A stretch of 64,000 bases of DNA from Candidatus Saccharimonadota bacterium (GCA_046350735.1 JAXLZU010000001.1:307950-371949); one strand, 5' to 3'; shown: positions 1,635 through 62,657, numbered from the stretch's first letter. Notes: generated by a model not told the origin, from the sequence alone. Program-made: numbers and translations.

Positions 1635-3073
1635 TGGCAAAACAGTATACGCCTACCATTGGTATAGAAATTCACGTACAGCTCGCTACCAAGACCAAAA
1701 TGTTTTGTGCGTGCGATAATAACAGTAGAAGTGCCAAGCCTAATACTAATGTTTGTCCGGTCTGTATGGCTTTTCCGGGTAGTTTGCCCGTAGTTAATAA
1801 AGGCGCTATAGAACTTGCAATAAAGCTAGGGTATGGACTAAATGCTGAGATAGCCAAGACTACTAGCTTTGATCGTAAAAATTATTTTTATCCAGATAGT
1901 CCAAAAGGTTACCAAATTACACAGATGAGAGAGCCAATAATTGGTGAGGGGCATATAGAAATTCTCGTTGATAACGAATTTAAGAAAATTGGTATTCATC
2001 ATGCACACCTAGAAGAAGATGCAGGTAAGTCTACACATCCGGCTGGCAAAGATTATAGCTTGGTAGATTTTAATCGTGCTGGAACACCACTAGTAGAGAT
2101 TGTTTCGGAGCCAGATATGCATAGCCCAACCGAGGCCAAACGTTACCTGCAAGAGGTATATGCCATTGCTACTACACTGGGTGTAAGCGATGGTGATATG
2201 GAGCATGGTAATTTTAAATTCGATCTTAATGTTTCGGTAAGTAACAGTAATGAGCTAGGTACACGCACCGAGCTGAAAAATCTTAACTCATTTAGGAATG
2301 CCGAACGTGCCCTAAACTATGAGATTGCAAGACAAATAGAAGTATTAGAGAGTGGTGAAAAAGTAGTACAAGAAACACGCGGCTGGAATGACGCCAAGGG
2401 CAAAACTGTTCCTCAACGCACAAAAGAAGAAGCTAATGACTATCGATACTTCCCCGAGCCAGATATTCCGCCTATTAATATAGACAAAGAGTTTATTAAT
2501 AGCATTCAAACAGAAGCAAAGAAAGAAGTGTTACCAATTACGGTTCGTCGCGAACTGCTAAATCTAGGTCTAAATACCGATGAGCAAGATATTTTGGTAG
2601 GGCAAACCAAAACCCGAACTATCTTTTATGATGCCAAAAATGTACTGAATAATAGCAAGCTAGAACGTAAGATTGTTAATTGGTTGGTTGGTGACTATCA
2701 GGCGTGGAAGAGCGAAAATAGCGAGGCCAACTCAAAACTGACCGGTCAACATTTGGCAGAGTTAATTTCTTTAATAGAAGAAGGCACTATTTCTTCTAAA
2801 ACAGCCAAAGAAATATTTGCTGATGTTATTGCTGGGCAAAAACCAGCAGAAATTATTCAAGCAAAAGGGCTTACCCAGATGAGTGACGACTCAGAGCTCG
2901 AATCAATTATTACTGGTATTATTGCTAAAAACCCCCAGGCTGTTGCAGATTATAAGTCGGGCAACGAAAAAGCTGCAGGATTTTTTGTGGGTCAGGTAAT
3001 GGCGGCTACAAAAGGTCAGGCAAATCCGGGCAAGGCCAATGCGCTTGTGCTAAAATTATTACAAGAGCAGTAA
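1634..3073 (+). CDS. gatB: Glu-tRNA(Gln)/Asp-tRNA(Asn) amidotransferase subunit B
   Basis: N-terminal IGIEIHVQL...CPVCMAFPGSLPVVNKGA motif typical of GatB; 479 aa; GTG start. Confidence 0.92.
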   Translation: MAKQYTPTIGIEIHVQLATKTKMFCACDNNSRSAKPNTNVCPVCMAFPGSLPVVNKGAIELAIKLGYGLNAEIAKTTSFDRKNYFYPDSPKGYQITQMREPIIGEGHIEILVDNEFKKIGIHHAHLEEDAGKSTHPAGKDYSLVDFNRAGTPLVEIVSEPDMHSPTEAKRYLQEVYAIATTLGVSDGDMEHGNFKFDLNVSVSNSNELGTRTELKNLNSFRNAERALNYEIARQIEVLESGEKVVQETRGWNDAKGKTVPQRTKEEANDYRYFPEPDIPPINIDKEFINSIQTEAKKEVLPITVRRELLNLGLNTDEQDILVGQTKTRTIFYDAKNVLNNSKLERKIVNWLVGDYQAWKSENSEANSKLTGQHLAELISLIEEGTISSKTAKEIFADVIAGQKPAEIIQAKGLTQMSDDSELESIITGIIAKNPQAVADYKSGNEKAAGFFVGQVMAATKGQANPGKANALVLKLLQEQ

Positions 3074-33932: not shown

Positions 33933-34014
33933 GGGTACGCCCTTCGTTGGCGAGGAGTCGAAGTTATTCTACATATTTATTAATTATTAGTCAAGAAAAT
34001 AGTAGTTTTGACTA

Positions 34015-34043
34015 TTGACACACTACATTTGTTTTGCTACAAT
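34015..34043 (+). promoter_or_regulatory. near-consensus sigma70 promoter (TTGACA-17 nt-TACAAT) driving the large non-coding transcript
   Basis: -35 TTGACA at 34015-34020, 17-nt spacer, -10 TACAAT at 34038-34043. Confidence 0.75.
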
Positions 34044-34848
34044 CGTAATCACGTTTTTGAACCTTACATTTGCTGCTAAAGAGTAATCTTATGCAGCGAT
34101 AACCAGCTTTTTCTAGAGTATCTGCTTAGCGCGGGTGCACGGTTTGATTCGCCTCATAAAGAATCTGGTTATCGCTGCAGTTTGCAGCAACAGAAGTGTC
34201 ACCGCAGTGTTCTGCGCCTCGCGAGTAATCGCGCTCTGCCCACAGGGGATCGGTGGAGTTGTCGTGTGCCCCAGAACCACACGTTTGCAGCTCTGCCTTA
34301 ATGGTCGGGTATGGGTTAAACTACCAGGCTGCGGTGACACGCCAATCGCTAGCTCGTCATGGATGGCCACGACGTTGGCCGTGAGCTCTCCTGAGCTTGA
34401 AATACGAGCTGGCAGTGATGTGCGGGTTATCTCATGGGTGACCGAACCGAAGTGCGCGCAAGGGAAGACCGATAACCTTGTTCGCTCGGACGATCCTGTG
34501 AGTCGGCAGTAGGCTTCGGTCTCGCCCTCACATCACATGCTCGCGTTCCATCTTGCTTAGTGGGCAGGAATTACCCACCAGGGTGGAACGCACCAATCAG
34601 TGCCGGCTCGCGGAAGCGGGCGAGTACTAGCGGAATCGCCTGTAAAACGGGGGTCTTCGCGAGCCGGCACGTTTTTCCGCGCGCTAGTCTCGCCAGCTGA
34701 GCCATCTCCGGGTGGGGCCAATGCGAGCGGATGCGCCTGAGAGACCGAAGCTGTTGCCAACGGCTGAGGAGCAGTAATTGAGTGCCTACTCCAAAACCAC
34801 TCTTGCCCCGGTCTCTCGGGCGAAATCGAAACAGGTAACTGTTTTGAA

Positions 34849-34917
34849 GGGGACGAAGTTCTTGTGGAAGAACACCTGCCCATCGGCAGGAGGTGTGGTT
34901 CGACTCCACCGTCTCCA
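34849..34917 (+). ncRNA. tRNA-like element inside the large ncRNA (7-bp acceptor, 4-bp D-stem, hairpin with 6-nt loop in place of anticodon arm, tmRNA/tRNA-type T-loop GGTTCGACTCC)
   Basis: GGGGACG...CGTCTCC-A acceptor pairing; GTTC/GAAC D-stem; CCTGC/GCAGG stem with 6-nt loop; the 3' half GTGGTTCGACTCCACCGTCTCCA closely resembles the 3' end of Bacillus-type tmRNA; no encoded CCA. Confidence 0.5.
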
Positions 34918-35237
34918 CTGGTAGTACAATCTCGACGGCGGGCCCTTCCTGTCACCGGCGGAAAGATTGTGCTCCATCCCGGCTTCGGGTCGGGTTGCAC
35001 TAAGGTGTGATGTTCGCTACTAGCGCCTTACGTGTAACTCGGCTCGTCGCCGGACCACCCCCTTGCCTCAATACTAATGTATTGGGGCTTTTCTTATGCA
35101 AACAGGTTGAGTTAAACAAGGTATTATGATATATTTATAAGTATGAATACAGTTAAAACAGCTTGGTTTTATTTTACAAACTCTGTGTCTCGCCGAGGTG
35201 TTTTGCGTTAAAGTCTAAATAGTATGTAATTAATTGT

Positions 35238-47718: not shown

Positions 47719-48108
47719 TCATTGCCGATTGGGTATATTTGCACGTTGATTCTTGACTCTCTGATAAATCTTTATCCCGGGCCAGCTTAGTAGCCAGATA
47801 GTAAAGATTGGCCAGCAAAGAATTGCTAAAACTATTTTTGGCTGAGTATCTACCTGGATCTTGCTCCAGCCTCGAAACCCATAGCAATACTTCTGAGAAA
47901 TCCTTTTTGATAGTGAGAAGGTATTGTTAAGCCAGGCTGGCGTTCCACTGAATAGTACGATTAGTACACGTATGGTAAAGTCGGGATTAACAGATATAAC
48001 CAGAATTAATGTAAAGAAGAAGAGGTAGCAAATATAGGCTTTTACTACAGCAAAGGCAAACTCACCATATGGCGCATTTCTCCTGCTAACGAGCTCTTCT
48101 GTCTCCAT
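47719..48108 (-). CDS. hypothetical membrane protein
   Basis: 129 aa with 3 TM helices; minus-strand terminator hairpin CCCAATC..GATTGGG at 47711-47738. Confidence 0.45.
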   Translation of the reverse strand: METEELVSRRNAPYGEFAFAVVKAYICYLFFFTLILVISVNPDFTIRVLIVLFSGTPAWLNNTFSLSKRISQKYCYGFRGWSKIQVDTQPKIVLAILCWPIFTIWLLSWPGIKIYQRVKNQRANIPNRQ

Positions 48109-48186
48109 GTCGCTCCATGGCCTAGAGGTTCAAAGCTAGAATATAATACCACAAATTATTAATTATTACAATAAAAAACCCAAACT

Positions 48187-48591
48187 CTAAAGTTCGGGTA
48201 GTGCAGCTAAAAGTGCTGCATACATCTCATCGATGATTTTCTGTAGCTCATCGATTTCAAACATCTGACATTCTTCAGAAAACTGGCTATATACAGCGAT
48301 GTACTTTTCTCTTAACTCGTAACTGTCAATCTCACCAAATCGATTTTGTTCGAAAGCATGCTTGAAGGCTTCCTCTGCTTCTTTCAATATTCTCTGCTTG
48401 AGCGTTGCTTTGTATTTGAGTAATTCAATCTTATTGGCAGAATTTTCTTCTAATTCATGGAGATATTTTGCTTGGTAGCTTCTTTTTTGTAGCAGAGCTA
48501 CGACTATATTGGTAATAACTTCAAGAACCTTTGTAATACTGAGAAAGATAACAAGAGCAAAGATGACATTGATTTCATCGGCTGTTGTCAC
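48187..48591 (-). CDS. hypothetical protein with N-terminal TM helix
   Basis: 134-aa ORF. Confidence 0.45.
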   Translation of the reverse strand: MTTADEINVIFALVIFLSITKVLEVITNIVVALLQKRSYQAKYLHELEENSANKIELLKYKATLKQRILKEAEEAFKHAFEQNRFGEIDSYELREKYIAVYSQFSEECQMFEIDELQKIIDEMYAALLAALPEL

Positions 48592-48666
48592 CCGTAACCA
48601 CCTCCTGGTACAAGACTACGATATATTATCATAATATTAGTATTTAGTAAATAAAAAACCCAATCA

Positions 48667-49212
48667 TTACTGATTGGGAAGTATTTTGGCCAGAACTTGG
48701 CTGAGACGTGGTTCGGCCAGGCCGGTGCCATAGTTCCACATTAACCCTTTATAGTGACGGCGACCATAGCTACCCAGCTCAATGCCGGTGTAGTGTTCTA
48801 CTATATCGGTTTGTTCATACGGAAAGTATTGGTACTTTGTCTTGCAGTAACCCGTAAAGAACCCTAATGCAATATATGCAAGCTCCATAAAACTAGTTGG
48901 TTGATTCGTAATCTCGATAAGCTCGACTTTGTAGAAGTAGGGGAGGTGTAGCTCGTCGTATGCTTCATCTCGAAAACAAGGTGTAGTGCACTGATATCTA
49001 CCCTCAGAGAGCTCATTATTGAGTATTAAGTGCAAAAAACTTTGCTCGCCGCTGGCTGGCAAAAACCCGCCAAGTGTAAAGAATGGAAAAGATCCTTCAG
49101 GAAAAGTTGCTTCGTATGCTTCTCGACAAACCACCCAAGGAACATCAATTTTTTTAAACCCCGCTGCTTCATAATAGGCTTCGGCAGCAGCAATTTTGGT
49201 GTGATCAATCAT
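48667..49212 (-). CDS. minimal class II aminoacyl-tRNA-synthetase-like catalytic-core protein (AspRS/AsnA-type motif 2)
   Basis: 181 aa carrying all three class II motifs in compact form: motif 1-like AGFKKIDVPWVV, motif 2 CFRDE(x9)YFYKVELIEI (compare E. coli AspRS CFRDEDLRADRQPEFTQID), motif 3-like GTGLAEPRL. Confidence 0.5.
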   Translation of the reverse strand: MIDHTKIAAAEAYYEAAGFKKIDVPWVVCREAYEATFPEGSFPFFTLGGFLPASGEQSFLHLILNNELSEGRYQCTTPCFRDEAYDELHLPYFYKVELIEITNQPTSFMELAYIALGFFTGYCKTKYQYFPYEQTDIVEHYTGIELGSYGRRHYKGLMWNYGTGLAEPRLSQVLAKILPNQ

Positions 49213-49472
49213 TTTCTTGCTCCGTTCTGGAATGCGCGAGCAGTGATATTACTCATAACAATCAGGTCATTCAGACTAATCGAAGGATGTTCTTCTTGTA
49301 GATAGAGACGAATGGCACCGATGAGATCACTCAACTCTTGCAGAGCCATCAGACTACATTCTTGTTCGAGTGCATCCTCAAACTCCTCAAGTTCCTCTCG
49401 TATCTTACCGGCGCTCCCTGTAGGTTGTTTTGCAATATCTGCTAGGTGGTAACCTGGTTTTTTTACCGGCAT
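49209..49472 (-). CDS. MazG-like all-alpha NTP pyrophosphohydrolase domain protein
   Basis: 87 aa; IREELEEFEDA...ELSDLIGAI...LNDLIV pattern typical of MazG/EE-x2-E all-alpha NTP-PPase; ATGA overlap with the downstream gene. Confidence 0.45.
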   Translation of the reverse strand: MPVKKPGYHLADIAKQPTGSAGKIREELEEFEDALEQECSLMALQELSDLIGAIRLYLQEEHPSISLNDLIVMSNITARAFQNGARK

Positions 49473-50119
49473 ATTGCCCCTCCTTTGGTCGTAGTAATAA
49501 TTAGCTCATGAACTTGTGCAATCTTTTCTTCGAGTGGAATTATAGAGCTAATACAATGGAAATTATTTCTTAGTTTCCAAACGTCAAAAGTGAGTTGGTT
49601 TACTCGCTTTGCATCCCCCAGGGATTCATATCGGTGCTCATTACCGATTTTGCCAAACAGATCGGGTTTGCCTACTGCGAGAGATTCTAGAAAAATAACT
49701 AGGTTATAACGACGTTGTAGCGTGTTTATAGTTATATCGAATTGGGATGTGAAGCCAGAAGTATTCTCGGGATGATAAGCAGCGATGTCAATCATTCCTC
49801 TGTCGCAGATCATTAAACTTTTTCTTTCAAGTCTAGCTTCTGCAACTGCTAAATCTTCTAGTGCTAACTGTGTATGATAGACTGCACTCTGAAAATGTCG
49901 CATCCAGCTATTAAATTGTTCATTACCAAGAAACCTTTGTGCTGGGGGTGGTGGAAACCCACCACTAAGAATAAGTGTGGCACATTCTGGTACAAAAACT
50001 GCTTCTTCATTCAATCTATCTTTTAATGCATTTACCACGGTAGTTTTACCTGCACATGGACCGCCAGTAATCACTATTTTTTTCATTTGTCTCCTTCGGT
50101 TGTTAAGGTACTTTTCCAC
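49463..50119 (-). CDS. P-loop NTPase / small-molecule kinase-like protein (AAA_28, NadR-RNK-like)
   Basis: Walker A ITGGPCAGKTT immediately at the N-terminus; 218 aa; no second AAA+ features. Confidence 0.5.
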   Translation of the reverse strand: MEKYLNNRRRQMKKIVITGGPCAGKTTVVNALKDRLNEEAVFVPECATLILSGGFPPPPAQRFLGNEQFNSWMRHFQSAVYHTQLALEDLAVAEARLERKSLMICDRGMIDIAAYHPENTSGFTSQFDITINTLQRRYNLVIFLESLAVGKPDLFGKIGNEHRYESLGDAKRVNQLTFDVWKLRNNFHCISSIIPLEEKIAQVHELIITTTKGGAICR

Positions 50120-50225
50120 ATTATATTTACCTCAAAATTTTATCTAGTCTAGAGATTTTTACTCAAAATTATTTAACCAATCAATAAATTGACTCAAATA
50201 ATCTGTGGATATATAGTACTTAGTA

Positions 50226-50894
50226 ATGACACATCACATCCAGAAACAGATTTTAGCCAAACTTATTTCACATCCGTATTTGCGGTTTAGCAGGCTAAAG
50301 CCAAGCAATATTGAGAGTAACCACTTTATGTACCATCTTAAATCTCTTATGCGAGAGGGTTTGGTAGTAAAAAACGACGAGGGTTTGTATTTACTTAGTG
50401 CCGAGGGTAAACAGTTTGCCGATAACTTAAGTCTCGATACATACAAACCTCGCAAACAGCCTAATATTGTCACACTGGTCACTTGTCAGAACGAAAAAGG
50501 GCAATGGCTGGTATACAAACGAGCTCGCCAACCATTAATTAACCAAGTGGGGTTTGTATATGGCAAAGTTCATTTGGGCGAAACAGTCTCAGAAGCTGCT
50601 CATAGAGAGTTAAAAGAAAAGACTGGCTTACAATGCGAGCTTACCCACAAGGGCGATGGCTACATTACTATTTACGAAAGTAATGAGCCTGTAAGTCAGA
50701 TACTGTTTCATATGTTTTATGGAAGAAATCCGTATGGAGAAATTAAGCCAACCAAAAAGCCGGGTACGGCCTCGTGGGCATGGCAAGAAGAATTTGGCCA
50801 CCCGCCTTATATGGCAAGCATGCCAGAGCTAGCCCGACTCGCTAAAGAACCAGGTGAGAGATTCTTTGTAGAACTAACATATAAACCAGGTTAG
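50226..50894 (+). CDS. winged-HTH + NUDIX hydrolase fusion protein
   Basis: N-terminal wHTH-like region; Nudix box GKVHLGETVSEAAHRELKEKTGL (Gx5Ex7REUxEExGU); 222 aa. Confidence 0.6.
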   Translation: MTHHIQKQILAKLISHPYLRFSRLKPSNIESNHFMYHLKSLMREGLVVKNDEGLYLLSAEGKQFADNLSLDTYKPRKQPNIVTLVTCQNEKGQWLVYKRARQPLINQVGFVYGKVHLGETVSEAAHRELKEKTGLQCELTHKGDGYITIYESNEPVSQILFHMFYGRNPYGEIKPTKKPGTASWAWQEEFGHPPYMASMPELARLAKEPGERFFVELTYKPG

Positions 50895-50945
50895 AGATAT
50901 AAAAAATTGGCCTTATCTCTAATAAGGTAAATAAAAACCCCAACC

Positions 50946-51527
50946 TTAGTTGGGGGTAGTGGTGAGTTTTTGGATGACAAATTTGTCTCTGTCTCGATCA
51001 AAAATCTGCTTCATCCGAAATTCGATTTCGGAGAGCAATTTGTCTAGATCAAAACCCATTAGCCTATATTGTGACATGAGAGAATTCAAAATAGGGTAAG
51101 GAATTTCTTGCAAGAAGAAGCAACGATCATACGGAATTCTAACCATATCATTTGGATCATAATCGTCCCAAAATGACCACTCTACATATATTACTTCAGA
51201 ATCAGTATTATTCAATTTATTTGCAGCAATCATGCAAAGTGCATACACCAAATATTGTACACGATTCATGCCCTCAGTGATTTTTTGGTTTAGTTCGTTT
51301 CGCAGGGTTTCTGTACTGAGATCGAGAATCTGATCGTAGGTAAGACCAAGCTTCTCACAGTGCTCTACTACAACTGCAGAACTTTCTGGCTCGGAGAATC
51401 CATCTACTACGGCAATCTCCCAGAAGACACTGGCAATAGATTCTACAGCAAACACCGAATCTGGAAATTCCTTCTTTTTGGCAATTTCGAGTAGTATTGG
51501 GAGGGCTGCAACGAGTTTCTCGTCCAC
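50946..51527 (-). CDS. hypothetical protein
   Basis: 193-aa ORF preceded by a CCCCAAC..GTTGGGG terminator hairpin at 50934-50960. Confidence 0.4.
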   Translation of the reverse strand: MDEKLVAALPILLEIAKKKEFPDSVFAVESIASVFWEIAVVDGFSEPESSAVVVEHCEKLGLTYDQILDLSTETLRNELNQKITEGMNRVQYLVYALCMIAANKLNNTDSEVIYVEWSFWDDYDPNDMVRIPYDRCFFLQEIPYPILNSLMSQYRLMGFDLDKLLSEIEFRMKQIFDRDRDKFVIQKLTTTPN

Positions 51528-51607
51528 TTCTGGGCCTTTCGAGGTACGAATAGGTATGTATAAACATATACTTCATAGGTGTATTTGTCAAGTAAAAAGC
51601 CCCGGTG

Positions 51608-51844
51608 TTAACCAGGGCGAAGAGAATAGAGGGAATACGCTATCATTAACGCTGCAGATGTCCAAAATACAAACAAGACCCCTAGTAGTGCATTTCTATC
51701 GCTTCTGCGTAGATACTTGGCCATCTCAGCCGAGCTTGCGCCTTCGTAATTACTTGGCGATTTACGCCAGCCATAAATAAAGACAAAGCCAAGAGCAATC
51801 AATACAACTGATAGAAAAAGCAAAAAACCTATCCCGATACTCAT
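51608..51844 (-). CDS. small hypothetical membrane protein (2 TM)
   Basis: 78 aa. Confidence 0.4.
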   Translation of the reverse strand: MSIGIGFLLFLSVVLIALGFVFIYGWRKSPSNYEGASSAEMAKYLRRSDRNALLGVLFVFWTSAALMIAYSLYSLRPG

Positions 51845-52275
51845 CGTCGGTGCTTGTTTCGGTATCTGCGTGCACGGGCATTATTGGCTTTCTCTGAAGC
51901 TTCAGATGAGTCGATTACCTTAATTTCTGTTAGTTTGGGTAAAACACATTCCTGCACACAGTTAAAGTGCAAGTGGCAATGCTGCCATCTTTTCGACATT
52001 TGAATACGCCTCATAATGACGTGGTCAGCACCAATCGGAATCTCGAGTTGACAACAGTAACAACGATATGGCTTCTTTGCAAAAGACTGGGCGAGAAAGA
52101 TAGTGATGTAATTACTATCTTTTGCGCGTAATGCCTGTCGCTTATTTGGTAAATCAATAAACTTTTGCAAATCCTCTTCGGATGGTGGACTTGAAAGGCC
52201 CAAGGTATTCACCCCATTTCTCGAAGGTACTGATTTAACAGAAGTTATAATACATATATTTATACATATTGTCAA
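51841..52275 (-). CDS. hypothetical Cys/His-rich protein (start uncertain)
   Basis: YRCYCCQ...HCHLHFNCVQEC motif; the track start is TTG; the true start may be an internal ATG. Confidence 0.3.
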   Translation of the reverse strand: MTICINICIITSVKSVPSRNGVNTLGLSSPPSEEDLQKFIDLPNKRQALRAKDSNYITIFLAQSFAKKPYRCYCCQLEIPIGADHVIMRRIQMSKRWQHCHLHFNCVQECVLPKLTEIKVIDSSEASEKANNARARRYRNKHRR

Positions 52276-52306
52276 TAATATAATGTTATTGATAGTCTGG
52301 TTATTA

Positions 52307-52335
52307 TTGCCACATTTATAACAATCTGCTACAAT
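52307..52335 (+). promoter_or_regulatory. candidate sigma70 promoter for fusA (TTGCCA-17 nt-TACAAT)
   Basis: -35 at 52307-52312, -10 at 52330-52335; ~70 nt upstream of the fusA ATG. Confidence 0.55.
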
Positions 52336-52407
52336 TATTCAGAAATAGCCATTATTTGGCGCTTTTTCATTTTTGCAATAATTATAGAAGGAGAGAATAC
52401 AAACCCC

Positions 52408-54534
52408 ATGGCGCGCGATTATAGCTTAGAAGACACCAGAAATATTGGTATTATTGCCCATATTGATGCTGGTAAAACTACCGTTACCGAAGGTGTACTA
52501 TACCGAACAGGTAAGGTGCATAAAATTGGTGAAGTTCACGAAGGTGAAGCCACCATGGACTGGATGGAACAAGAACGTGAACGTGGCATTACTATTACCT
52601 CTGCTGCTACCACATGTTTCTGGAACAACAAGCGCATTAATATTATTGATACTCCTGGTCATATCGACTTTACTGTAGAAGTAGAGCGCTCTCTTCGTGT
52701 GCTTGATGGTGCGGTTACTGTATTCGACGGCAAAATGGGTGTGGAGCCGCAAAGTGAAACTGTGTGGCGTCAAGCTGATAAATATGGTGTACCACGCATT
52801 TGTTTTATTAACAAAATTAACCAAACCGGTGGTGACTTTTATAAATCGTTAGAATCTATTCACGAACGACTTACTAAGCACGCGTATCCCATTCACTTGC
52901 CAATTGGTTTCGAGCAGCAAATAAATGGTGTAGTAGACCTTATTAGTATGAAGGCATACACCTATAAAGACTACACTGACAAAGAACTTATTGAGGGTGA
53001 AATTCCTGCAGATATGAAAGAAAAGGCTGAAAAATATCGTCAGCACCTAATAGAAGCTGCAGTAGAAGCTGATGATGCAGTTATGGAGAAATATCTAGAA
53101 GGTACCGAGCTAAGTGATGAAGAAATAAAGACCGTTATTCGCAAGTCGGTACTACGTGGAGACTTCTTTATTGTTTCTGGTGGTGATGGCCGTGGTGTAA
53201 TTGTAGAGAAATTACTCGACATTATTACCGACTACCTACCAAACCCACTCGAGGTAACTCCACCGCTTTCTATCGATACCAAGACAGGCGAAGAAAAAGT
53301 ACTAGAAGTGAGCGATGACGCACCTTTTGCTGCGTTGGCCTTTAAGATTGCTACCGATCCATTTGTGGGTAAACTAGCTTTCTTTAGGGTGTATGCAGGT
53401 ACGGTAAAGACTGGTAGCTATGTGCTCAATAGCAGTACTGGCGAAAAAGAACGTATTGGTCGTATTGTACGAATGCATGCCAATAACCGCGAAGAAGTAG
53501 ATGAAGTATATGCTGGCGAAATTGCAGCAGCAGTAGGTCTAAAAGCAACAATTACCGGTAACACCTTGTGTGATCCGGGTGGAAACATTGTTCTTGAGAG
53601 TATTACCTTCCCAGAACCTGTTATTAGTATTGCTATCGAGCCAAAAACTAAGGCCGACCAAGAAAAGATGAGTATAGCACTTGGTCGCTTGGCCGAAGAA
53701 GACCCTACCTTTAGGGTGCACACCGACGAAGATAGTGGCCAAACCATTATTGACGGTATGGGCGAGCTTCATCTCGAGGTGATTGTTGATAGAATGAAGC
53801 GCGAATTTAAAGTAGAAGCTAACGTTGGCCGACCACAGGTAGCCTTTAGAGAAACCATTAAAGGTACCACGCAGATAGAAGGTAAGTTTGTTAGACAATC
53901 TGGCGGACGTGGTCAGTTTGGTCATGTTTGGCTCGAGCTTAGTCCGTTAGTAAAAACCGAAGATGACGAAAAAGGTAAGATCTTTGAGTTTGAAAATGCC
54001 ATTGTTGGTGGTGCGGTACCAAAAGAATACATTAAGCCAGTAGAGCAAGGTATTATTGAGGCTATGAGTAACGGTGTTATTGCTGGTTACCCTGTAGTGG
54101 ATATTCATGCCAAGCTTTACGATGGTAGTTATCACGAGGTAGATAGTAGTGAGGTGGCCTTTAAAATTGCTGCTTCTATGGCCTTGCAAGAAGGTGTCAA
54201 AAAAGCCCAGCCAGTTATTATGGAACCTATTATGAAGGTAGAAATTACTACCCCAGAAGAATCGATGGGTGATGTTATAGGTGATATTAATGCCAAACGT
54301 GGACGAATAGATGAGATGGAAGACCGAAGTGGCGCCAAGGTTATTCGATGTTTTGTTCCACTTGCTGAAATGTTTGGTTATGCCACAAGTCTTCGTAGTC
54401 TTACTCAGGGTCGCGCCAGTTATGCTATGGAGTTTGACCACTACGCCGAAGTGCCTGGTAATGTAGCCGAAGAACTCAAAGGCAAATACACTGCCGCTAG
54501 AGAATCTGGCGACGCCTCGGCTCGCGCTAGCTAA
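52408..54534 (+). CDS. fusA: elongation factor G
   Basis: 708 aa; GTPase motifs [18 protein letters not shown]. Confidence 0.97.
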
Positions 54535-54669
54535 TATATTGTTCGAGGTAATTCTAGGGCTATAGTTCTTACTTTGTTCGAACAATAAGACAATCTCAAA
54601 AAAAGACTCGTTCCCTGGGTCTTTTTTTGTAATAAAAAATCCCAGTTTTTCACTGGGAAATAGTACTCA

Positions 54670-55218
54670 TTATCCTGGGACAGGTGGAGGTAAGGCATTA
54701 GGAGAAGGTACTTTAATATTCTTGACAGCTTTTGCCAAGGTTTCGGCTTTTTGTCGAATCCAACCCTTTCCTCGCGGTATTGTATCGGCTGCAAAATAGA
54801 TAGAAACCGAATATAGCAGCCAACTCAGATCAACAAGAGCGTGAAATTTATCGCTATTCAACAGATCAGTAATTAGGAAAAAGAGATTAATAGTACCTAG
54901 ACCTAGCCTGATAACAATCCATCCATCCCCATTAAACTCACTTTTTAGCTTGGCATCAGAACCAGACTCAAGGTTCTGTTGGTCTTTGCGAAATAGCAAA
55001 ATTAGCATAATAAAAGCCATAAAGATAGCTAGCCATACTAACCCATCTAATGCATCAAACTTACCAATTGAGTACTTATAAAAGTAATAAAGTGTCGTAA
55101 CTAATTCAGAAAAAATTACGACTGCTATGGCAAAAAAATAGTTCGATCTACCAGTTAGCTTACACAAGAAGCTTAATGGCACATGCAAAATGCTTGCAAT
55201 AAATTGGTCAATTTTCAT
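54670..55218 (-). CDS. hypothetical integral membrane protein
   Basis: ATG at 55218 with GGGAGG RBS chosen over the longer track ORF; ~5 TM helices. Confidence 0.45.
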   Translation of the reverse strand: MKIDQFIASILHVPLSFLCKLTGRSNYFFAIAVVIFSELVTTLYYFYKYSIGKFDALDGLVWLAIFMAFIMLILLFRKDQQNLESGSDAKLKSEFNGDGWIVIRLGLGTINLFFLITDLLNSDKFHALVDLSWLLYSVSIYFAADTIPRGKGWIRQKAETLAKAVKNIKVPSPNALPPPVPG

Positions 55219-55445
55219 ACATCCAGCCTCCCTAGAAAGGTGCGAAAGTATCAAATACTATAGCATCTAAATATAGTTATTACAATAAAAATTATTATGC
55301 TTGCAAAATAGCACAAAAAGCGTATTGTTGTTCTTGCCTTCCTGGGTTGGTGCAACCTCGTAAAATCGCTACAGCGACTAGCGGGGGAGTGAAGCGGGCG
55401 GAGTAACCCACTTTTCAGCCACCGGCGAGTAGCAAGGAGATTAGT

Positions 55446-55718
55446 ATGAGCGATGAGCCGGATCAGGAAGAAGTAAGGCAAGTTAATGACGATGATTGGC
55501 GTTCTCGTCCACTAACGCGACGACAAAAGCCAGCTCCAAAAGAACCTGATGTACCTGTAACAAGTGCAGAAGAACTCGCCGCAGAGCAGCGAGAGATACA
55601 AACATTTTTGCAGGCCAGCCAGCAGGCCGGGGTAGACCCTAGTGTCTTAACCGAGCGTCTTGGAAAAGTAGCCGAGCGCCTTGCTAAAGAAGACGATAGC
55701 ACTAACTCTTTGGAGTAG
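55446..55718 (+). CDS. hypothetical acidic protein (GC-rich gene with GC-rich 5' leader)
   Basis: AAGGAG RBS; 90 aa, low-complexity acidic; followed by a CTCCTACC..GGTAGGAG + T6 terminator at 55727-55757. Confidence 0.4.
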   Translation: MSDEPDQEEVRQVNDDDWRSRPLTRRQKPAPKEPDVPVTSAEELAAEQREIQTFLQASQQAGVDPSVLTERLGKVAERLAKEDDSTNSLE

Positions 55719-55865
55719 TTTAGTCACTCCTACCACAACCGGGTAGGAGATTTTTTATCCTACTAAAAAAGAATAGGTGAGCCTCTCTTGTATAATGATT
55801 TATGCAGAAGAGCAATCTTATGATAGAATATGGTCTGTCCTCAAACCCTTCCATCAGGAGGCTAA

Positions 55866-56138
55866 ATGGACGGAATGTACCTCGACGAACCTTTAGAACG
55901 ACTCAAGTTTGCATTGTTTGTTGTGGCTATTACGCTTTTCTCAATAATTATCTGTGTAGGCTTTGTGGCCTGGATATTCACCGGTGATATCGATATTCTG
56001 GCACGTACTTTGCTAGTGTTTGTTATTGCAACCCTCATGGTCCGTTTCTTTTTTGGCTATGAAGCTGAGGGGTATCGACCATCTCCTCCAGATAGTTCTC
56101 ATCCTGATATGGACGTTTGGACAGAAGATGAGCTCTAA
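55866..56138 (+). CDS. small hypothetical membrane protein (2 TM)
   Basis: 90 aa; followed by a terminator at 56142-56169. Confidence 0.4.
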   Translation: MDGMYLDEPLERLKFALFVVAITLFSIIICVGFVAWIFTGDIDILARTLLVFVIATLMVRFFFGYEAEGYRPSPPDSSHPDMDVWTEDEL

Positions 56139-56141
56139 GTA

Positions 56142-56169
56142 TAGACCTTTGTTTGCAAGGGTCTTTTTT
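56142..56169 (+). terminator. rho-independent terminator (AGACCTTTG..CAAGGGTCT + T6)
   Basis: 9-bp hairpin with one GU pair, followed by TTTTTT. Confidence 0.7.
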
Positions 56170-56183
56170 CATAATAAAAGCCT

Positions 56184-56212
56184 TTACAAATCGAGAGAGA
56201 TTAGCTATACTA
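56184..56212 (+). promoter_or_regulatory. candidate sigma70 promoter for tuf-rpsJ (TTTACA-17 nt-TATACT)
   Basis: -35 at 56184-56189, -10 at 56207-56212. Confidence 0.5.
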
Positions 56213-56287
56213 AATACAAGCTATTCCAAGGCGATTTTTTATTGTCTAAAATAATATATTAATAACCCAAAATAATAAGGAGAAATA

Positions 56288-57469
56288 ATGGCAGATTTTA
56301 AGCGCGACAAACCACACGTTAATGTAGGTACTATGGGTCACGTCGACCACGGTAAAACTACCTTAACTGCAGCTATCACTCACGTTTTGGCAAAGAAATT
56401 GCCTAGTGATGTAAACAAACCAATTAAGTACGACGAAATCGATAAGGCTCCAGAAGAAAAAGAACGCGGTATTACTATCGCTACTTCTCACCAAGAGTAC
56501 GAAAGCGAAAAGCGTCACTATGCTCACGTTGATATGCCTGGTCATGCCGACTACGTTAAGAACATGATTACCGGTGCTGCACAGGTAGATGGTGCTATCT
56601 TGGTAGTAAGTGCAGCTGATGGTCCTATGCCACAAACTCGCGAGCACGTATTGCTTGCTAAGCAAGTTGGTGTGCCAAAAATCTTAGTTTTCATGAACAA
56701 GATGGATATGGCCGACCCAGAACTTGCCGAACTCGTTGAAGTAGAAATTCGCGAACTCTTAGAAAAATACGATTTCGACAAAGATGCTCCAATTGTTAAG
56801 GGTTCTGCTCTTAAAGCTCTAGAAGGCGACGCTGCATCAGAAGATGCCATTATGGAGCTCGTAAAGGCTATGGATGAATACATTCCAGAACCAAAGCGCG
56901 ATCTCGACAAGCCATTCCTTATGCCAATCGAAGACGTATTCTCTATTAAGGGTCGTGGTACTGTTGCTACCGGTCGTATCGAACAAGGTAAAGTTAATAT
57001 TAACGACGAAGTTGAAATTGTTGGTATTAAAGACACTTCTAAAACCGTAGTAACCGGTGTAGAAATGTTTAAGAAAATGCTCGACGAAGGTCAAGCTGGT
57101 GATAACGTAGGTATCTTGCTTCGTGGTATTGAACGCGATGATATCGAACGTGGTCAGGTACTTGCCAAACCAGGCAGCATTACTCCACACACCGAATTTG
57201 AATGTGAAGTATATGTTCTTAAAAAAGAAGAAGGCGGACGTCACACCCCATTCTTTAAAGGCTACAAGCCACAATTTTACTTCCGTACTACCGACGTTAC
57301 TGGCGAAGTAGAGCTTCCAGAAGGTACCGAAATGGTAATGCCTGGCGATAATATCTCTGTTAAGGTAAAACTCCTTGCTCCAATCGCTATGGAAGACGGC
57401 TTACGCTTTGCTATCCGCGAAGGTGGTAAGACTGTTGGCGCTGGTGTTGTAACTAAGATTATCAAGTAG
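56288..57469 (+). CDS. tuf: elongation factor Tu
   Basis: 393 aa; [18 protein letters not shown] motifs. Confidence 0.97.
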
Positions 57470-57484
57470 TAGAATACAAATACC

Positions 57485-57805
57485 ATGCCAGACGCACCAA
57501 CCAAGCAACGTATCCGCATTAAGCTAAAAGCTTATGACAATAAAGTAATGGATCAGTCGACTAAGCAAATTATCGATACCGCTATTCGTACTGGTGCGAA
57601 TGTAGCCGGGCCTATTCCTCTACCTACCGATAAGAAGAAGTACACTGTTAACAAGAGCCCACACATCTATAAGACCTCACGAGAGCAGTTTGAAATGCGT
57701 ACTCACAAACGTCTTATCGATATTACCGAGCCAACACCTAAGACGATTGATAATCTCATGAATCTTAGCTTGCCAGCCGGTGTAGACATCGAAATTAAAA
57801 TGTAA
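57485..57805 (+). CDS. rpsJ: 30S ribosomal protein S10
   Basis: [11 protein letters not shown]...PLPT...[21 protein letters not shown]; 106 aa. Confidence 0.95.
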
Positions 57806-57821
57806 AACATACAATCTAAAA

Positions 57822-57845
57822 GGGCTCCTCTAGAGGAGCCCTTTT
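57822..57845 (+). terminator. rho-independent terminator directly after rpsJ (GGGCTCCTC-TA-GAGGAGCCC + T4)
   Basis: Perfect 9-bp palindromic hairpin; its position is unusual because rplC normally follows rpsJ. Confidence 0.7.
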
Positions 57846-57942
57846 AGATTACTAATAAATTGATGATAGTACTAATGACTAATATAAATAACCTAACAAC
57901 TTCTTAGCATATAAAAAACCCCAGATTTCTCTGGGGTATAAA

Positions 57943-59355
57943 TTACTCTTTGTCAGTTTCTGCTTTTTCTATCATAGTACGAATATCTCGCTGCATACGA
58001 GCCTTAATAAAACGTGGAAGCTTATAGTAGCCTTCAATACTTGGTGAAATATGGGGTCGTACAAAGGTAAAACCTGGTTTGATATAACGAATTACTCTCA
58101 AGCCTGTTGTTTTTTCAAACTCTTCTAGCTCAATACGGTGCTTCGCGCTCATGTTCTTTCCATCGGGCAAACGTCGCAAGTGCCCAGTTACGTGGTGTGG
58201 CTCACGGGTAATTGCGTTCAAGATGGGTTTACGTGGCTCGACTTCTTGCTGGCGTCCAGCTTTGTCGACATAAGTACGGCGTATGTATAAGAAATGTTCT
58301 GACGAATCAGAATCTGAGTATGGTTGTCCCGACTTCGGCTCATGATCTGTCGAGGGTTCAACAACGATCGTGTCCGCTGTCACCAGATCGTGATAGACTG
58401 AGCAAATCAGAAATACAACATTTTTAAAAATATTTGAATCATTGGATCCTAACTTGATTTCATCATCAAGATCTGTGTCCGTCAGAAAAGCCTCTTCGTT
58501 AATAAAGTAAGTTGCCTTTTTGCCACTGCTATCCACAAGGAATACCTGAAACTGCAAGTAGTCATCAAACGTGGGAAGTACTAAGAGCTGTAGTTCTACA
58601 ATCGCACCATAACCAGAAAGTCTTACCCGTACACCTCGCTCGTGCACAAGATATCGTTGATTGTAGTATGCGTCTTCCAGAAATTTTCTTGACTCTATCA
58701 AGATATCTGAGTTAGGTTCTTGTTCTAAAATATGTGAATTTTGAACCCAAAGGTTAATGTCACGGGGGTCGGGGTAAAAATCAATAGCACTCTCTGAAAC
58801 CGTACACATATCAATTGAGTATCCTACAAGCTTTCGTAGTACATCAAATATATCGTCAGCGGTATTGAGCCTGGTTTTGTATTTCTTATAGATGAGCTGC
58901 CCAGTACTACGGTTCTTGCCTAGCAAAAATTGCTTTTCGTTACCGATAAGTATACGAATGGTGGCAAAATACAGCATTAACACATTCCCAAGAGTATTTT
59001 CGTATGTGCCTGACTCTGTTTGGCCAAGGGTAATGTGTGCAATTTGAATTAAGATGTTTAATTCATTGACGTTATCCGCAAAATATTCGGGCACCCCAGA
59101 AAAAAGTTGTGCAATATTGTGGTAATATTGTCTCTCAGCTTCATTGGTCTGCATACCGTTCCGCACATTTTGCTTGCATGCCTCGATGATTAATAGCAGT
59201 TCATGGACAACGGTTTCAAGATATTTATGTCCCCTGGCAAAAACTTCATCCTCACTAACAAATGGGTATTTTTGCATGTGTGTATCGACATCACTAAAGA
59301 GACTAACGCAAGTTTCTGCGAACACGTTGGTAACTAGGCGGGGTTTACGCCACAT
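57943..59355 (-). CDS. large hypothetical protein (471 aa), no recognisable domain
   Basis: ATG at 59355 with GGGGTGG RBS (the track start TTG 59373 is slightly longer); own minus-strand terminator CCCCAGA..TCTGGGG at 57914-57940. Confidence 0.5.
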   Translation of the reverse strand: MWRKPRLVTNVFAETCVSLFSDVDTHMQKYPFVSEDEVFARGHKYLETVVHELLLIIEACKQNVRNGMQTNEAERQYYHNIAQLFSGVPEYFADNVNELNILIQIAHITLGQTESGTYENTLGNVLMLYFATIRILIGNEKQFLLGKNRSTGQLIYKKYKTRLNTADDIFDVLRKLVGYSIDMCTVSESAIDFYPDPRDINLWVQNSHILEQEPNSDILIESRKFLEDAYYNQRYLVHERGVRVRLSGYGAIVELQLLVLPTFDDYLQFQVFLVDSSGKKATYFINEEAFLTDTDLDDEIKLGSNDSNIFKNVVFLICSVYHDLVTADTIVVEPSTDHEPKSGQPYSDSDSSEHFLYIRRTYVDKAGRQQEVEPRKPILNAITREPHHVTGHLRRLPDGKNMSAKHRIELEEFEKTTGLRVIRYIKPGFTFVRPHISPSIEGYYKLPRFIKARMQRDIRTMIEKAETDKE

Positions 59356-59433
59356 GATACCACCCCATGTCAAGGTCCTGGACTGAGCTTATATTAACAT
59401 AAATATAATAATTTGTAAATAAAAACCCTAGAG

Positions 59434-59913
59434 CTATCTAGGGAGAGGCTGGAGCAAATCAACTATGTAGCGTTCATTTAGACCAGCTGTAAAGAGTAAA
59501 TTTACCACTTTGTATGGGTCTTCATCTCTAATGCGAGCCATATCAATCTCGAGCGAGTAGGGCCGCAAAAAACTCGGTAGAGTAGGCTGTGCCAAAAAAG
59601 TAATTACTCTCTTAAGCAGTTCATCGCTACTGCATTCCGGCTCGCGAAATCGTGTTTCTGATATAGGAATACGAGGAGCGTGAAAATGCAGGGTGTTATT
59701 AAACTTCCTCACCGCCCGTGGCGAAGACAGCACAATTAAGAATGGTTCTTCTTGCCAGGTCCAATCGCCAAGGCCACGCGTGGCGGCAATGGCCCAAGCA
59801 ATGTCTGAATTTCGCAAGCACTTCATTAACTGAATATAGGTGACCTGATCGATTCTACCAGTAATTACTTCGAGACGGCCAATATCTGGGTCGTTCGGAA
59901 AAGGATGATCCAC
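59434..59913 (-). CDS. hypothetical protein
   Basis: 159 aa; GTG start with AGAAAGG RBS; candidate TTGCAC-17-TACAAT promoter upstream on the minus strand at ~59945-59975; terminator hairpin CCCTAGA..TCTAGGG at 59422-59445. Confidence 0.4.
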   Translation of the reverse strand: MDHPFPNDPDIGRLEVITGRIDQVTYIQLMKCLRNSDIAWAIAATRGLGDWTWQEEPFLIVLSSPRAVRKFNNTLHFHAPRIPISETRFREPECSSDELLKRVITFLAQPTLPSFLRPYSLEIDMARIRDEDPYKVVNLLFTAGLNERYIVDLLQPLPR

Positions 59914-60072: not shown

Positions 60073-60525
60073 TTAGCTGCTACGGTCGGTAACGAGCTGT
60101 AGTGAGGCGGATCTAGCGGTAAGCCGGTCGTACAGGTGAGGAAGCTGCTTCTCGAAAAAGCTTCGCAACGCAGAGGCAGAAGATCCGCTAAGGCGCTGCC
60201 GCTTCAACTGGCTTGGCATGATGTTGCGATACCTAGCGACAGAATCGAAGATGGCTGAGATCTGCCCCTCGACAAACTTCTCGTCAGGAACGATGGCCAC
60301 CACGGTGTTGCTGAGCCGAATAACCGTGATGCCATTCCGGTCGAGATAGCCTTCGATGGTATCTCCAAACCCGCTCTTGGTCTTCTCGCACATCGGCATG
60401 CTAATCAGCATTACCGTGCGACGTCTTTTGGTATTACCTACTTTCTGTGTTGGGTAGAACATGGCATACTCAGCTACCAAGCAACTACCCTCTTCTGAAG
60501 ACGGGGGTTTTTGATCTTGTGTCAC
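60073..60525 (-). CDS. hypothetical protein (GC-rich gene)
   Basis: 150 aa; GTG start with AGAGGGAGAGAGA RBS; a central segment VMLISMPMCEK...GITVIRLSNTVVAIVPDEKFVEGQISAIFDSV has a Rossmann-like alternation. Confidence 0.4.
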   Translation of the reverse strand: MTQDQKPPSSEEGSCLVAEYAMFYPTQKVGNTKRRRTVMLISMPMCEKTKSGFGDTIEGYLDRNGITVIRLSNTVVAIVPDEKFVEGQISAIFDSVARYRNIMPSQLKRQRLSGSSASALRSFFEKQLPHLYDRLTARSASLQLVTDRSS

Positions 60526-61628: not shown

Positions 61629-61876
61629 GCACAAAAAAACCAAAACGCTCCATTGCTCGAGACTTTGTCTTTTTGGTAAAAGCAGCTCTTTATCTTCTTT
61701 TGGGCACAATTTGGATTAGTTTTGGCGGCCATCGTTTGTTACCTGTGGGTCTAGTGCTGGGGTTTGGCTTCTCTCAGCTAGATTTTTTACGGATAGATAG
61801 AAAAATCGAATATGCATTATTGGTGGTTGGCGCACTTCTGGGTCTGTATGGCCTAGGCATTACAATTCAGCTATAG
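61625..61876 (+). CDS. small hypothetical membrane protein
   Basis: 83 aa; ATGA overlap with the upstream gene. Confidence 0.4.
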   Translation: MSTKKPKRSIARDFVFLVKAALYLLLGTIWISFGGHRLLPVGLVLGFGFSQLDFLRIDRKIEYALLVVGALLGLYGLGITIQL

Positions 61877-61884
61877 TTTTAGGG

Positions 61885-61914
61885 TTGACATTTCAGGTAA
61901 GTTTCTGATACACT
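61885..61914 (+). promoter_or_regulatory. candidate sigma70 promoter for the rplC-rplD-rplW-rplB operon (TTGACA-18 nt-TACACT) followed by a structured ~130-nt leader
   Basis: -35 TTGACA at 61885-61890, -10 at 61909-61914; the leader carries a CTGAACA...TGTTCAG stem (61976-62024) enclosing TCGGT-AAAA-ACCGA, followed by a T-rich run. Confidence 0.5.
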
Positions 61915-62045
61915 ACTAGGCGACTAAAGAAATCTTCTAGATAGTGAAGTTTTACTTCTCAAAAGTCACCCCAGCTGAACATAGGAAAGGTCGGTAAAAA
62001 CCGAAACCATCAAGTGTTCAGATATTATTTTTTAAATTTGTTTTT

Positions 62046-62657
62046 ATGAAAGCTTTAATCGCCCAAAAGATTGGTATGACTCAAGTGTTCTCGGAAAAGG
62101 GAACAGTTATTCCTGTTACATTACTTTTGGCAGGCCCATGTGTGGTGACTCAAGTTAAGACTGACGAGACTGATGGTTATAGTGCTGTTCAGCTTGGTTA
62201 TGGTGAAGCCAAAAAGTTGGCCAAACCACAGGTTGGCCATGTCAAAAAAAGTGGTGCTACCCCAAAGACTCTCAGCGAATTTAGAATTGAAGGTGAAGAC
62301 GATATGCCGAAAGTTGGTGATAGCATTACTGCCGAAGTTTTCTCTGTTGGTGACACTATAACCGTAAGTGGTGTTTCTAAAGGAAAAGGCTTTGCCGGAA
62401 CAATTAAGCGTCATAATTTTGCTCGTGGTCCAAAAACTCATGGTAGTCACAATTATCGGGCTCCAGGTTCGATAGGTGCTGGTTATCCACAGCATGTTTT
62501 TAAGGGTCAAAAAATGGCTGGTCATATGGGTAATGCACAGGTTACAACCAAGAATCTTACTGTGGCGCATGTAGATGCTAAAAACAACATTATTGGTATT
62601 AAAGGTGCCATTCCTGGACCTAAAAAATCAATTGTACGAATATGGGGGATCGCATAA
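62046..62657 (+). CDS. rplC: 50S ribosomal protein L3
   Basis: [25 protein letters not shown]...; 203 aa. Confidence 0.96.

Follow-up and report, generated by a model that had tools for sequence, protein, structure and literature searches.

A strain-variable gene between rpsJ and rplC of a Saccharibacterium encodes a protein of an undescribed superfamily that recurs in integrative elements and phages

A strain-variable segment in a ribosomal protein operon

A 64,000-nt stretch of a Candidatus Saccharimonadota genome (GCA_046350735.1, contig JAXLZU010000001.1, 307950-371949; hereafter the window, with positions counted from its first nucleotide) carries a gene for a protein of 470 amino acids (aa) that is missing from a near-identical sister strain. 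As an earlier note made from the sequence had it, the gene lies inside the S10-operon interval, flanked by rpsJ (57485-57805) and rplC (62046-62657). Its product belongs to an undescribed protein superfamily, matching no curated family or solved fold, and other members of the family occur repeatedly on integrative elements and phages, in three phyla. One possible explanation, which we put forward tentatively, is that the gene is the cargo of a 1.6-kb strain-variable cassette that moves horizontally, and that the protein acts alone on DNA for the spread or retention of that cassette.

The polymorphism was mapped through the neighbouring 159-aa protein, relatives of which occur at 90% identity or more on other contigs and mark four related loci (L043-L046); L043 is on a 298-kb contig of the metagenome-assembled genome (MAG) GCA_964570715.1, and the other three contigs are shorter. 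All four have the order rplC, membrane open reading frames (ORFs), 150-aa gene, 159-aa gene, rpsJ, tuf, and the 470-aa gene is absent from their gene maps. The window aligns with L043 (blastn) in three blocks:

52000-57805: 99.78% identity, ending exactly at the rpsJ stop codon
59412-61875: 97.8% identity
61881-64000: 99.86% identity

The gene, the segment that contains it and the signals around it are:

57943..59355, minus strand: coding sequence of the 470-aa protein, stop codon at 57943-57945 (ORF listing and homologs)
57806..59411, unstranded: strain-specific segment of 1,606 bp, replacing 28 bp of L043 (blastn junctions)
57813..57850, unstranded: perfect 38-nt palindrome, 8 nt past the rpsJ stop codon (repeat search)
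57918..57937, minus strand: terminator-like hairpin and T-run of the 470-aa gene, with the stem-loop CCCCAGA-TTTC-TCTGGGG at 57919-57936 (terminator scan)
59391..59419, minus strand: sigma-70-like promoter candidate, TTTACA-17-TAATAT with TG, 36 nt upstream of the ATG (promoter scan)
59426..59443, minus strand: terminator-like hairpin of the 159-aa gene, CCCTAGA-GCTA-TCTAGGG

Because the segment at 57806-59411 takes the place of 28 bp in a near-identical sister strain, we regard the 470-aa gene as a strain-variable single-gene cassette, made up in order of the 38-nt palindrome, a spacer, the terminator hairpin, the gene and the start of the promoter-like region. This presence/absence polymorphism, with its mapped junctions, shows the gene to be independent of the 159-aa gene. 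The earlier note had proposed an effector of a stand-alone system and had suggested looking for co-occurrence with that neighbour; the two genes are indeed adjacent, in the same orientation and followed by similar terminators, but co-occurrence fails both at the four sister loci, where the 159-aa and 150-aa genes are found without the 470-aa gene, and among 25 family loci, where no homolog of either stands next to another family member. A terminator and a separate promoter candidate moreover lie between the 470-aa and 159-aa genes, and a two-gene system of this kind is very improbable. A type II toxin-antitoxin pair was likewise rejected, the upstream 159-aa gene having its own terminator and occurring without the 470-aa gene.

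On the strand opposite to the operon, an uninterrupted ORF extends over 57943..59373 from a TTG start (476 aa). Close homologs from the Candidate Phyla Radiation (CPR) all begin MW(K/R)xP, and since this N-terminus is conserved in all CPR homologs we take the ATG at 59355 as the start, giving 470 aa and a stop codon. The protein is deposited at NCBI as MFO0862463.1, 'hypothetical protein U0516_01970', from a 797,647-bp contig of a Candidatus Saccharibacteria MAG, and five contigs carry it. A promoter and terminator of its own, as claimed earlier, were recovered as consensus matches only (promoter-like site 59419-59391, terminator-like hairpin 57937-57918): promoter-like sites in the region are no more numerous than in shuffled sequence, the right junction of the strain-specific segment (59411/59412) cuts through the promoter candidate, and the terminator scan, again by consensus, places a terminator-like hairpin after each of the three minus-strand genes. 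The codon usage, which had been thought to resemble that of the host, does so in GC content (0.413) but not in relative synonymous codon usage (RSCU), for which the leave-one-out correlation is 0.48 vs 0.75-0.86 for eight other window ORFs of 400-480 codons. It is thus the least host-like among genes of similar size, in agreement with a foreign origin. Taken with the absence of the gene from a 99.8%-identical sister strain, these signals and the atypical codon usage bear out the earlier view of a stand-alone accessory gene: the gene is real, self-contained and not part of the ribosomal operon.

The segment is bracketed by related hairpins. CCCYAGA-N4-TCTRGGG occurs in only two copies in 64 kb (57919-57936 and 59426-59443; 0.01 expected by chance), which a compensatory stem change (C-G to T-A) sets apart and whose flanks are similar over about 65 nt (score 43, vs 22 +/- 4 in shuffles); the empty site of the sister strain has a single hairpin, the right copy, which is the terminator of the 159-aa gene. 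With a possible integron gene cassette in mind, we note that related hairpins follow both the 470-aa and the 159-aa gene, and that these resemble ordinary terminators with T-runs. The 38-nt palindrome is unique in the window, where it is also the longest hairpin, and has the look of a terminator acting in both directions, for rpsJ on one side and for the convergent 470-aa gene on the other; at that position the hairpin of the sister strain is shorter and different. At the mapped junction there is no clean target-site duplication, only an AT-rich 9/10 match read by eye. Mismatches are most frequent beside the right junction (5-9 per 100 bp), and within ~1 kb their density drops to about 1 per 100 bp; this gradient suggests that a diverged donor supplied the segment, together with some of the DNA flanking it, through homologous recombination. 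Natural competence is known in Saccharibacteria (PMC10633639).

A protein family outside curated collections

The earlier note had also described the protein as an orphan without a detectable family signature. The second part of that description is borne out: the best Pfam match has an E-value of 0.44 (11 bits, cut-off 27), NCBIfam, PHROGs and PADLOC give no match, and the PDB sequences give nothing either, whether searched with the protein (best E-value 0.38) or with three profiles, among them the family profile. The 159-aa and 150-aa neighbours likewise have no match in Pfam, NCBIfam, PHROGs, PADLOC or PDB sequences. An orphan, in turn, it is not. Among 5.8 billion proteins searched there are 35 homologs, most of them full-length, with 430-480 aa and 22-33% identity (E 2e-37 to 4e-16); no Pfam domain occurs in any of them. 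A profile built from the homologs recovered 180 clusters at 50% identity among 1.84 billion representatives, almost all of 430-520 aa. No Pfam match is common to any of 33 family members, and longer members (513-601 aa) and phage-branch proteins match neither Pfam nor PHROGs.

Genome matches are to MAGs of Saccharibacteria, Berkelbacteria and Daviesbacteria, with a few labelled Gammaproteobacteria, labels that we suspect reflect mis-binning. A tblastn search of INPHARED phages and PLSDB plasmids found no family match, and in the literature on CPR mobile elements and ribosomal-operon insertions we found nothing naming the family. The case for its newness is one of exclusion, no known family or solved fold matching it; uncharacterised metagenomic families are common, and we find the result surprising to a moderate rather than a high degree.

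Domain architecture and conserved residues

A confident AlphaFold2 model built with the family alignment (predicted local distance difference test, pLDDT, 84.5; predicted template modelling score, pTM, 0.84) and a separate model of residues 138-470 (84.4 and 0.83) divide the protein as follows, with residue conservation computed over 123 full-length members:

58945..59355, minus strand: N-terminal all-helical domain, residues 1-137 (78% helix, 0% strand by DSSP on the AlphaFold2 model)
58336..58944, minus strand: middle alpha/beta domain, residues 138-340 (35% helix, 25% strand in the AlphaFold2 model)
57946..58308, minus strand: basic C-terminal region, residues 350-470, with beta strands, the conserved module and a long terminal helix (LPRFIRxRIQ)
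58051..58200, minus strand: core module PHHVTGHLRR...helix...GFTFVRPH, residues 386-435 (hhalign and alignment)

The N-terminal domain is acidic (isoelectric point, pI, 5.3), has few conserved columns apart from MW(K/R)xP, and does not align between the CPR and the Chloroflexi/phage branches. The statement that the N-terminal two-thirds are mostly helical had to be narrowed to residues 1-137, residues 138-340 being mixed. The latter, also acidic, are modelled as a five-strand meander between two helices and contain the motifs LLEDAYYNQRY (E227) and IYHDLVTA (Y321-H322-D323); this middle domain is homologous to that of the phage branch, where IWRDACVV is the counterpart of IYHDLVTA. Residues 341-470 are beta-rich in the model, with one helix in the module and the long helix at the end.

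A basic, His-rich C-terminus had been predicted: basic it is, the last 121 residues having a pI of 9.9 (family median 10.1, net charge about +7), while six His in 121 residues make 'His-rich' a weak description. The module they contain (family consensus IPR...HxVxGHxR...helix...GYTFVRPH) is the only part common to all branches. It is also found in short proteins of ~100 aa, and a domain-fusion search with it returned short proteins only, at least some of them fragments or split copies, with no fusion to a known domain. At the loci of two such short matches (P0177 and P0181) the preceding ORF aligns with the upstream part of the family, and at least one of the two is for this reason a split copy. 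Among polar positions, conservation is highest at Y321 (98%), D323 (89%), R360 (97%), R375, H387, R394 and T430; R360, R375, H387, V389, R394 and T430 are conserved at 85-98%, and E227 and E414 at about 75%. Given its charge and conservation, the nucleic-acid-binding or nuclease-like role suggested earlier for the C-terminal module is plausible.

Several enzyme identities were considered for the protein and rejected. An HNH or His-Me finger reading fails because, after GHxR, the columns that would supply the 'N' and the second 'H' vary (N to K/S/P, H to Q), and there is no hidden Markov model (HMM) or structural match to HNH. For a PD-(D/E)xK nuclease, neither acidic residues nor Lys are conserved in the strands at residues 242-286 (where the consensus is LKVK, the window protein has LQLLVL), and a structural match is again lacking. 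The HUH reading fails on column conservation. A tyrosine recombinase is contradicted by a conserved Tyr lying N-terminal to the Arg/His residues and by the lack of a Phage_integrase HMM match or structural match. A DDE-transposase insertion sequence (IS) was rejected because terminal inverted repeats are lacking at the gene, both in the window and in six loci; the Thermoflexus copies, of which there are at least three with about 90% identity, are only suggestive of an IS-like multicopy state.

Branches in Chloroflexi, Bacillota and phages

The C-terminal module also matches Chloroflexi proteins of about 360-570 aa, the core module aligning with a Thermoflexus protein at 96.2% (hhalign); profile-profile comparison of the CPR with the Chloroflexi/phage branches extends the relationship over the middle and C-terminal domains (96.9% probability, E 2e-10). 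The Thermoflexus copies mentioned above, at least three and diverged (about 90% nucleotide identity), lie at contig ends of one MAG. In one comparison their homology stops at the 3' end of the ORF, and in another it continues into a tyrosine recombinase that directly follows the family gene. A further relative is present in an Anaerolineaceae MAG. In the Chloroflexi branch a small ORF overlaps the start of the gene and, judged by eye, resembles an excisionase-type helix-turn-helix (HTH) protein; the L024 copy of this ORF has no Pfam match.

Viral contigs with family relatives carry terminase, portal, MuF, capsid and ParB genes. On a Bacillota contig (L042) a full-length relative (1668-3050) adjoins ParB_N and HNH genes, is preceded by a 140-aa ORF that looks ribbon-helix-helix (RHH)-like by eye, and is split by a single in-frame stop before the (S)YWYVPR motif, which could be a pseudogene, a sequencing error or recoding. 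In L041 a split copy lies 1.3 kb upstream of a tyrosine integrase.

Genomic contexts in CPR bacteria and two rival roles

Three CPR loci (L002, L003 and L005) are integrative elements with large serine recombinases, several kb from the family gene. The L002 element has a restriction-modification (RM) system beside the gene; L003 has SocA/Panacea, its recombinase and two tandem family paralogs; and in L005 an FtsK/TrwB-like ATPase and a Replic_Relax protein stand next to the gene, with AbiEii, Mrr and recombinases, a layout that we take to resemble actinomycete integrative elements. A methylase is found near the gene in L006, and phage methyltransferases in L039 and L048. Neither tblastn of the window neighbours against 25 loci nor all-vs-all clustering of neighbours at 38 loci revealed a conserved partner, and in the latter only distant large serine recombinases recur across lineages. 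Rfam searches of the window and eight loci found only tRNAs and one LOOT RNA (RF03000, 63.8 bits), at 5114-5244 in the serine-recombinase element of L002. The tandem paralogs of L003 (8479-9789 and 10001-11389) are 40% identical.

These contexts raise the possibility that the protein is an accessory factor of integrative elements and phages, such as a replication initiator, a regulator, or a directionality or recombinase partner factor, with the window copy a stranded survivor of an element that has decayed. Besides the recurrent large serine recombinases and the arrangement in L005, such a role would account for the tyrosine recombinase directly after the gene in Thermoflexus, the integrase 1.3 kb downstream in L041, the small HTH-/RHH-like ORFs (by eye) just upstream in L023, L024 and L042, which are confined to this distant branch, and the homologs in phage contigs with terminase, portal and ParB. 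Most CPR copies, however, are intact and stand alone, the 8-10 kb around them holding neither a recombinase nor other element genes, and the segment in the window holds the 470-aa gene only. A stranded factor should decay, yet the motifs are kept and syntenic orthologs have a ratio of nonsynonymous to synonymous substitution rates (dN/dS) of about 0.4, a weak estimate since dS is saturated. We found neither motif nor fold of a primase, helicase or Rep protein in the 470-aa protein. We consider an accessory factor unlikely. The nearest known counterparts would presumably be the RepSA-like replication initiators of actinomycete-type integrative elements, of about 450 aa: the size is similar, and the L005 gene adjoins an FtsK-like translocase, Replic_Relax and recombinases, but the family has no rolling-circle HUH/Y motifs and no Rep match, and most of its copies are solitary in chromosomes.

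Most of the other CPR copies stand alone amid housekeeping genes. A Berkelbacteria copy (L012) separates rplO from secY in the spc operon, and others lie upstream of mltG-rpoB-rpoC (L035), between rpmA/rplS and dnaE (L011), and beside secA/serS, mreB or rnc. In two lineages whose proteins are 54% identical, the gene occupies the same place beside a type IV pilus operon. From its sites in or beside ribosomal-protein, rpoB, secY, secA and dnaE genes, and in particular its place in ribosomal-protein clusters (S10/L3 here, L15/SecY in Berkelbacteria), one might suppose a housekeeping or translation-linked factor. CPR genomes are small and dense in housekeeping genes, and adjacency to these is expected. 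Against such a factor stand the absence of the gene from the 99.8%-identical strain, its rarity (180 clusters among 1.84 billion), its orientation opposite to the operon, its presence in phages and integrative elements, and the other, unrelated insertions in the same str cluster. No match to a housekeeping enzyme family, which the earlier note had named as the result that would speak against its own reading, was found. A housekeeping role is extremely improbable; because of the sister-strain locus, both it and the two-gene system are effectively excluded.

Some lone genes are bracketed by repeats. In L036 a perfect 24-nt direct repeat, TACTTCGGCATCCCCCCGACGGAG, at 82-105 and 1761-1784 surrounds the family gene (175-1647), and the right copy is immediately preceded by partial copies, in tandem, of the repeat's left half; in L032 the direct repeat that brackets the gene is imperfect and ~90 nt long. 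Separately, a 27-nt motif, GCTCCGAATCGTGGAGGAAGTTAGAAC, lies within ~150 nt of family genes at four independent CPR loci, in either orientation relative to the gene; the sites are 85-96% identical, and the family proteins concerned are only 27-40% identical. Its positions are:

L002 9825-9851, minus strand: 27-nt motif
L003 9871-9897, plus strand: 27-nt motif
L027 5295-5321, minus strand: 27-nt motif
L031 1223-1249 / L032 10810-10836, plus strand: 27-nt motif

With up to five substitutions allowed, the motif is found nowhere else in the loci compared or the window, nor in the viral contigs, and it has no Rfam match and no consistent ORF. It could be a binding or recombination site.

The neighbourhoods also admit a second role, in which the protein is a single-gene effector of defence against phages or other mobile genetic elements, of the abortive-infection type. 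The helical N-terminal domain would sense the invader and the basic C-terminal domain attack nucleic acid, the gene spreading by transformation and homologous recombination to the benefit of the host. Its sporadic, strain-variable distribution, its own promoter- and terminator-like signals, atypical codon usage, and a variable N-terminal beside a conserved C-terminal domain would all suit such an effector, as would retention at one locus across 54% protein identity and neighbours that include RM (L002), AbiEii and Mrr (L005), SocA/Panacea (L003), a methylase (L006) and phage methyltransferases (L039, L048). Natural competence (PMC10633639) fits the recombination-like divergence gradient. On the other side, there is no PADLOC match and no recognisable nuclease, nucleoside triphosphatase, TIR or Sir2 effector fold, contexts are mostly housekeeping genes rather than defence islands, and only some 4-5 of about 20 independent loci associate the gene with defence genes. 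Set beside the single-protein defence effectors of PADLOC and DefenseFinder, the family shares their stand-alone, sporadic occurrence, their variable N- and conserved C-terminal domains, their occasional position beside RM, Abi or toxin-antitoxin genes and their presence on phages and other mobile elements, but departs from them in having no PADLOC model, no known effector domain and neighbourhoods that mostly are not defence islands. A defence role is a possibility that we regard as doubtful.

A possible single-protein, DNA-acting cassette

We hypothesize, tentatively, that the gene is cargo of a horizontally moving cassette whose protein acts alone on DNA. The cassette would occupy the site bounded by the rpsJ stop codon on one side and the 159-aa gene's terminator on the other, and its protein would work in three parts: a variable, acidic, helical N-terminal domain that sets specificity, an alpha/beta middle domain with the near-invariant Tyr-His-Asp helix, and a basic C-terminal module that binds nucleic acid. 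Y321, D323, R360, R375, H387 and R394 may together form a phosphoryl-transfer or tight-binding site, the activity of which would serve the spread or retention of the cassette itself, as a site-specific recombinase or homing-type enzyme would, with no role in ribosome function or in a two-gene system. DNA binding, catalysis and self-mobility are here what we infer from the family's sequences, models and contexts.

In favour of this proposal we count the single-gene difference from L043 and the only two CCCYAGA-N4-TCTRGGG hairpins bracketing the cassette; the repeats around lone genes in L036 and L032 and the lone insertions beside conserved genes; the Thermoflexus copies, the lack of a conserved partner gene and the atypical codon usage; the members inside serine- or tyrosine-recombinase elements and phages; the overlapping excisionase-like ORF (by eye) of the Chloroflexi branch, as in xis-int pairs; and the basic, conserved C-terminal module with near-invariant Tyr, Arg and His.

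A number of observations weigh against it. HMM and structure comparisons show the protein to resemble no recombinase, transposase or homing endonuclease in sequence or fold. Terminal inverted repeats are lacking at the gene in the window and six loci, an exact flanking direct repeat is present at only one of 18 loci (L036), and the CPR loci examined have one copy each, except for the tandem pair in L003. The mismatch gradient fits ordinary import by homologous recombination rather than fresh transposition, the shared site beside the type IV pilus operon suggests a useful gene that was kept and inherited vertically over a long time, and the copies beside RM, AbiEii, Mrr and SocA genes suit a defence role equally well.

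Known single-gene elements offer the closest comparison for the proposed cassette. Like IS110/IS1111 and IS200/IS605 elements and free-standing homing-endonuclease genes, it measures 1.5-1.7 kb with one gene of ~450 aa and no terminal inverted repeats, lies between genes next to hairpins and conserved genes, is present or absent in near-identical strains, is carried in phages and other elements, and occurs in several copies in one Thermoflexus MAG. Unlike these, the family has no HMM or fold match to DEDD, HUH, LAGLIDADG, GIY-YIG or HNH, has one copy per CPR locus examined and an exact flanking repeat at only one locus, and no conserved ends were identified. Similarly, a conserved Tyr with an Arg/His cluster in a basic, DNA-binding-like region recalls tyrosine recombinases, and the excisionase-like HTH ORF (by eye) over the start of the Chloroflexi-branch gene recalls xis-int modules; in contrast to those enzymes, the Tyr is N-terminal to the Arg/His, Phage_integrase and structural matches are lacking, and the same elements have separate genes for true tyrosine or serine recombinases.

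It is tempting to go further and speculate that the family represents a hitherto undescribed class of DNA recombinases or homing enzymes, new in fold, each moving its own ~1.6-kb cassette into hairpin-bearing intergenic sites by conserved genes. We think this unlikely; were it so, such cassettes would be minimal autonomous mobile elements of CPR bacteria and of Chloroflexi/Bacillota phages. Should the protein act on DNA alone, it would add a new fold, compact (470 aa) and without partner, to the few enzymes that move or defend genes, and this in organisms for which very few mobile-element or defence functions are known. Whatever its function, two near-identical strains, one with the site occupied and one with it empty, give a precise instance of an accessory gene entering the most conserved operon cluster, here of a minimal, naturally competent genome.

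Other features of the window

In addition to the 470-aa gene, the rpsJ-rplC interval contains the 159-aa and 150-aa ORFs on the minus strand and three membrane ORFs on the plus strand. Between the last membrane ORF and rplC (window 61876-62045 vs L043 5432-6036) the sister strain is ~440 bp longer and has a 92-aa ORF; because of these extra ~440 bp near rplC, the rpsJ-rplC island has insertions or deletions at both edges. The 150-aa ORF (60073-60525, minus strand) is clearly foreign: its GC content is 0.525 overall and 0.62 at third codon positions, where the genome has about 0.43 and 0.33, and its RSCU correlation is close to 0. It has no family match, yet occurs at 90% identity or more in several related contigs.

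Elsewhere, window positions 34001-35000 have a GC content of 0.555 vs about 0.42 in the remainder, and ARAGORN predicts an odd tRNA of undetermined anticodon at 34849-34918, where Rfam finds nothing. The str cluster holds seven ORFs between rpsG and fusA (47719-52275), including AAA_28 kinase-like and NUDIX proteins, and three small ORFs between fusA and tuf (54670-56138). The layout of L043 is similar between fusA and tuf and beyond fusA.

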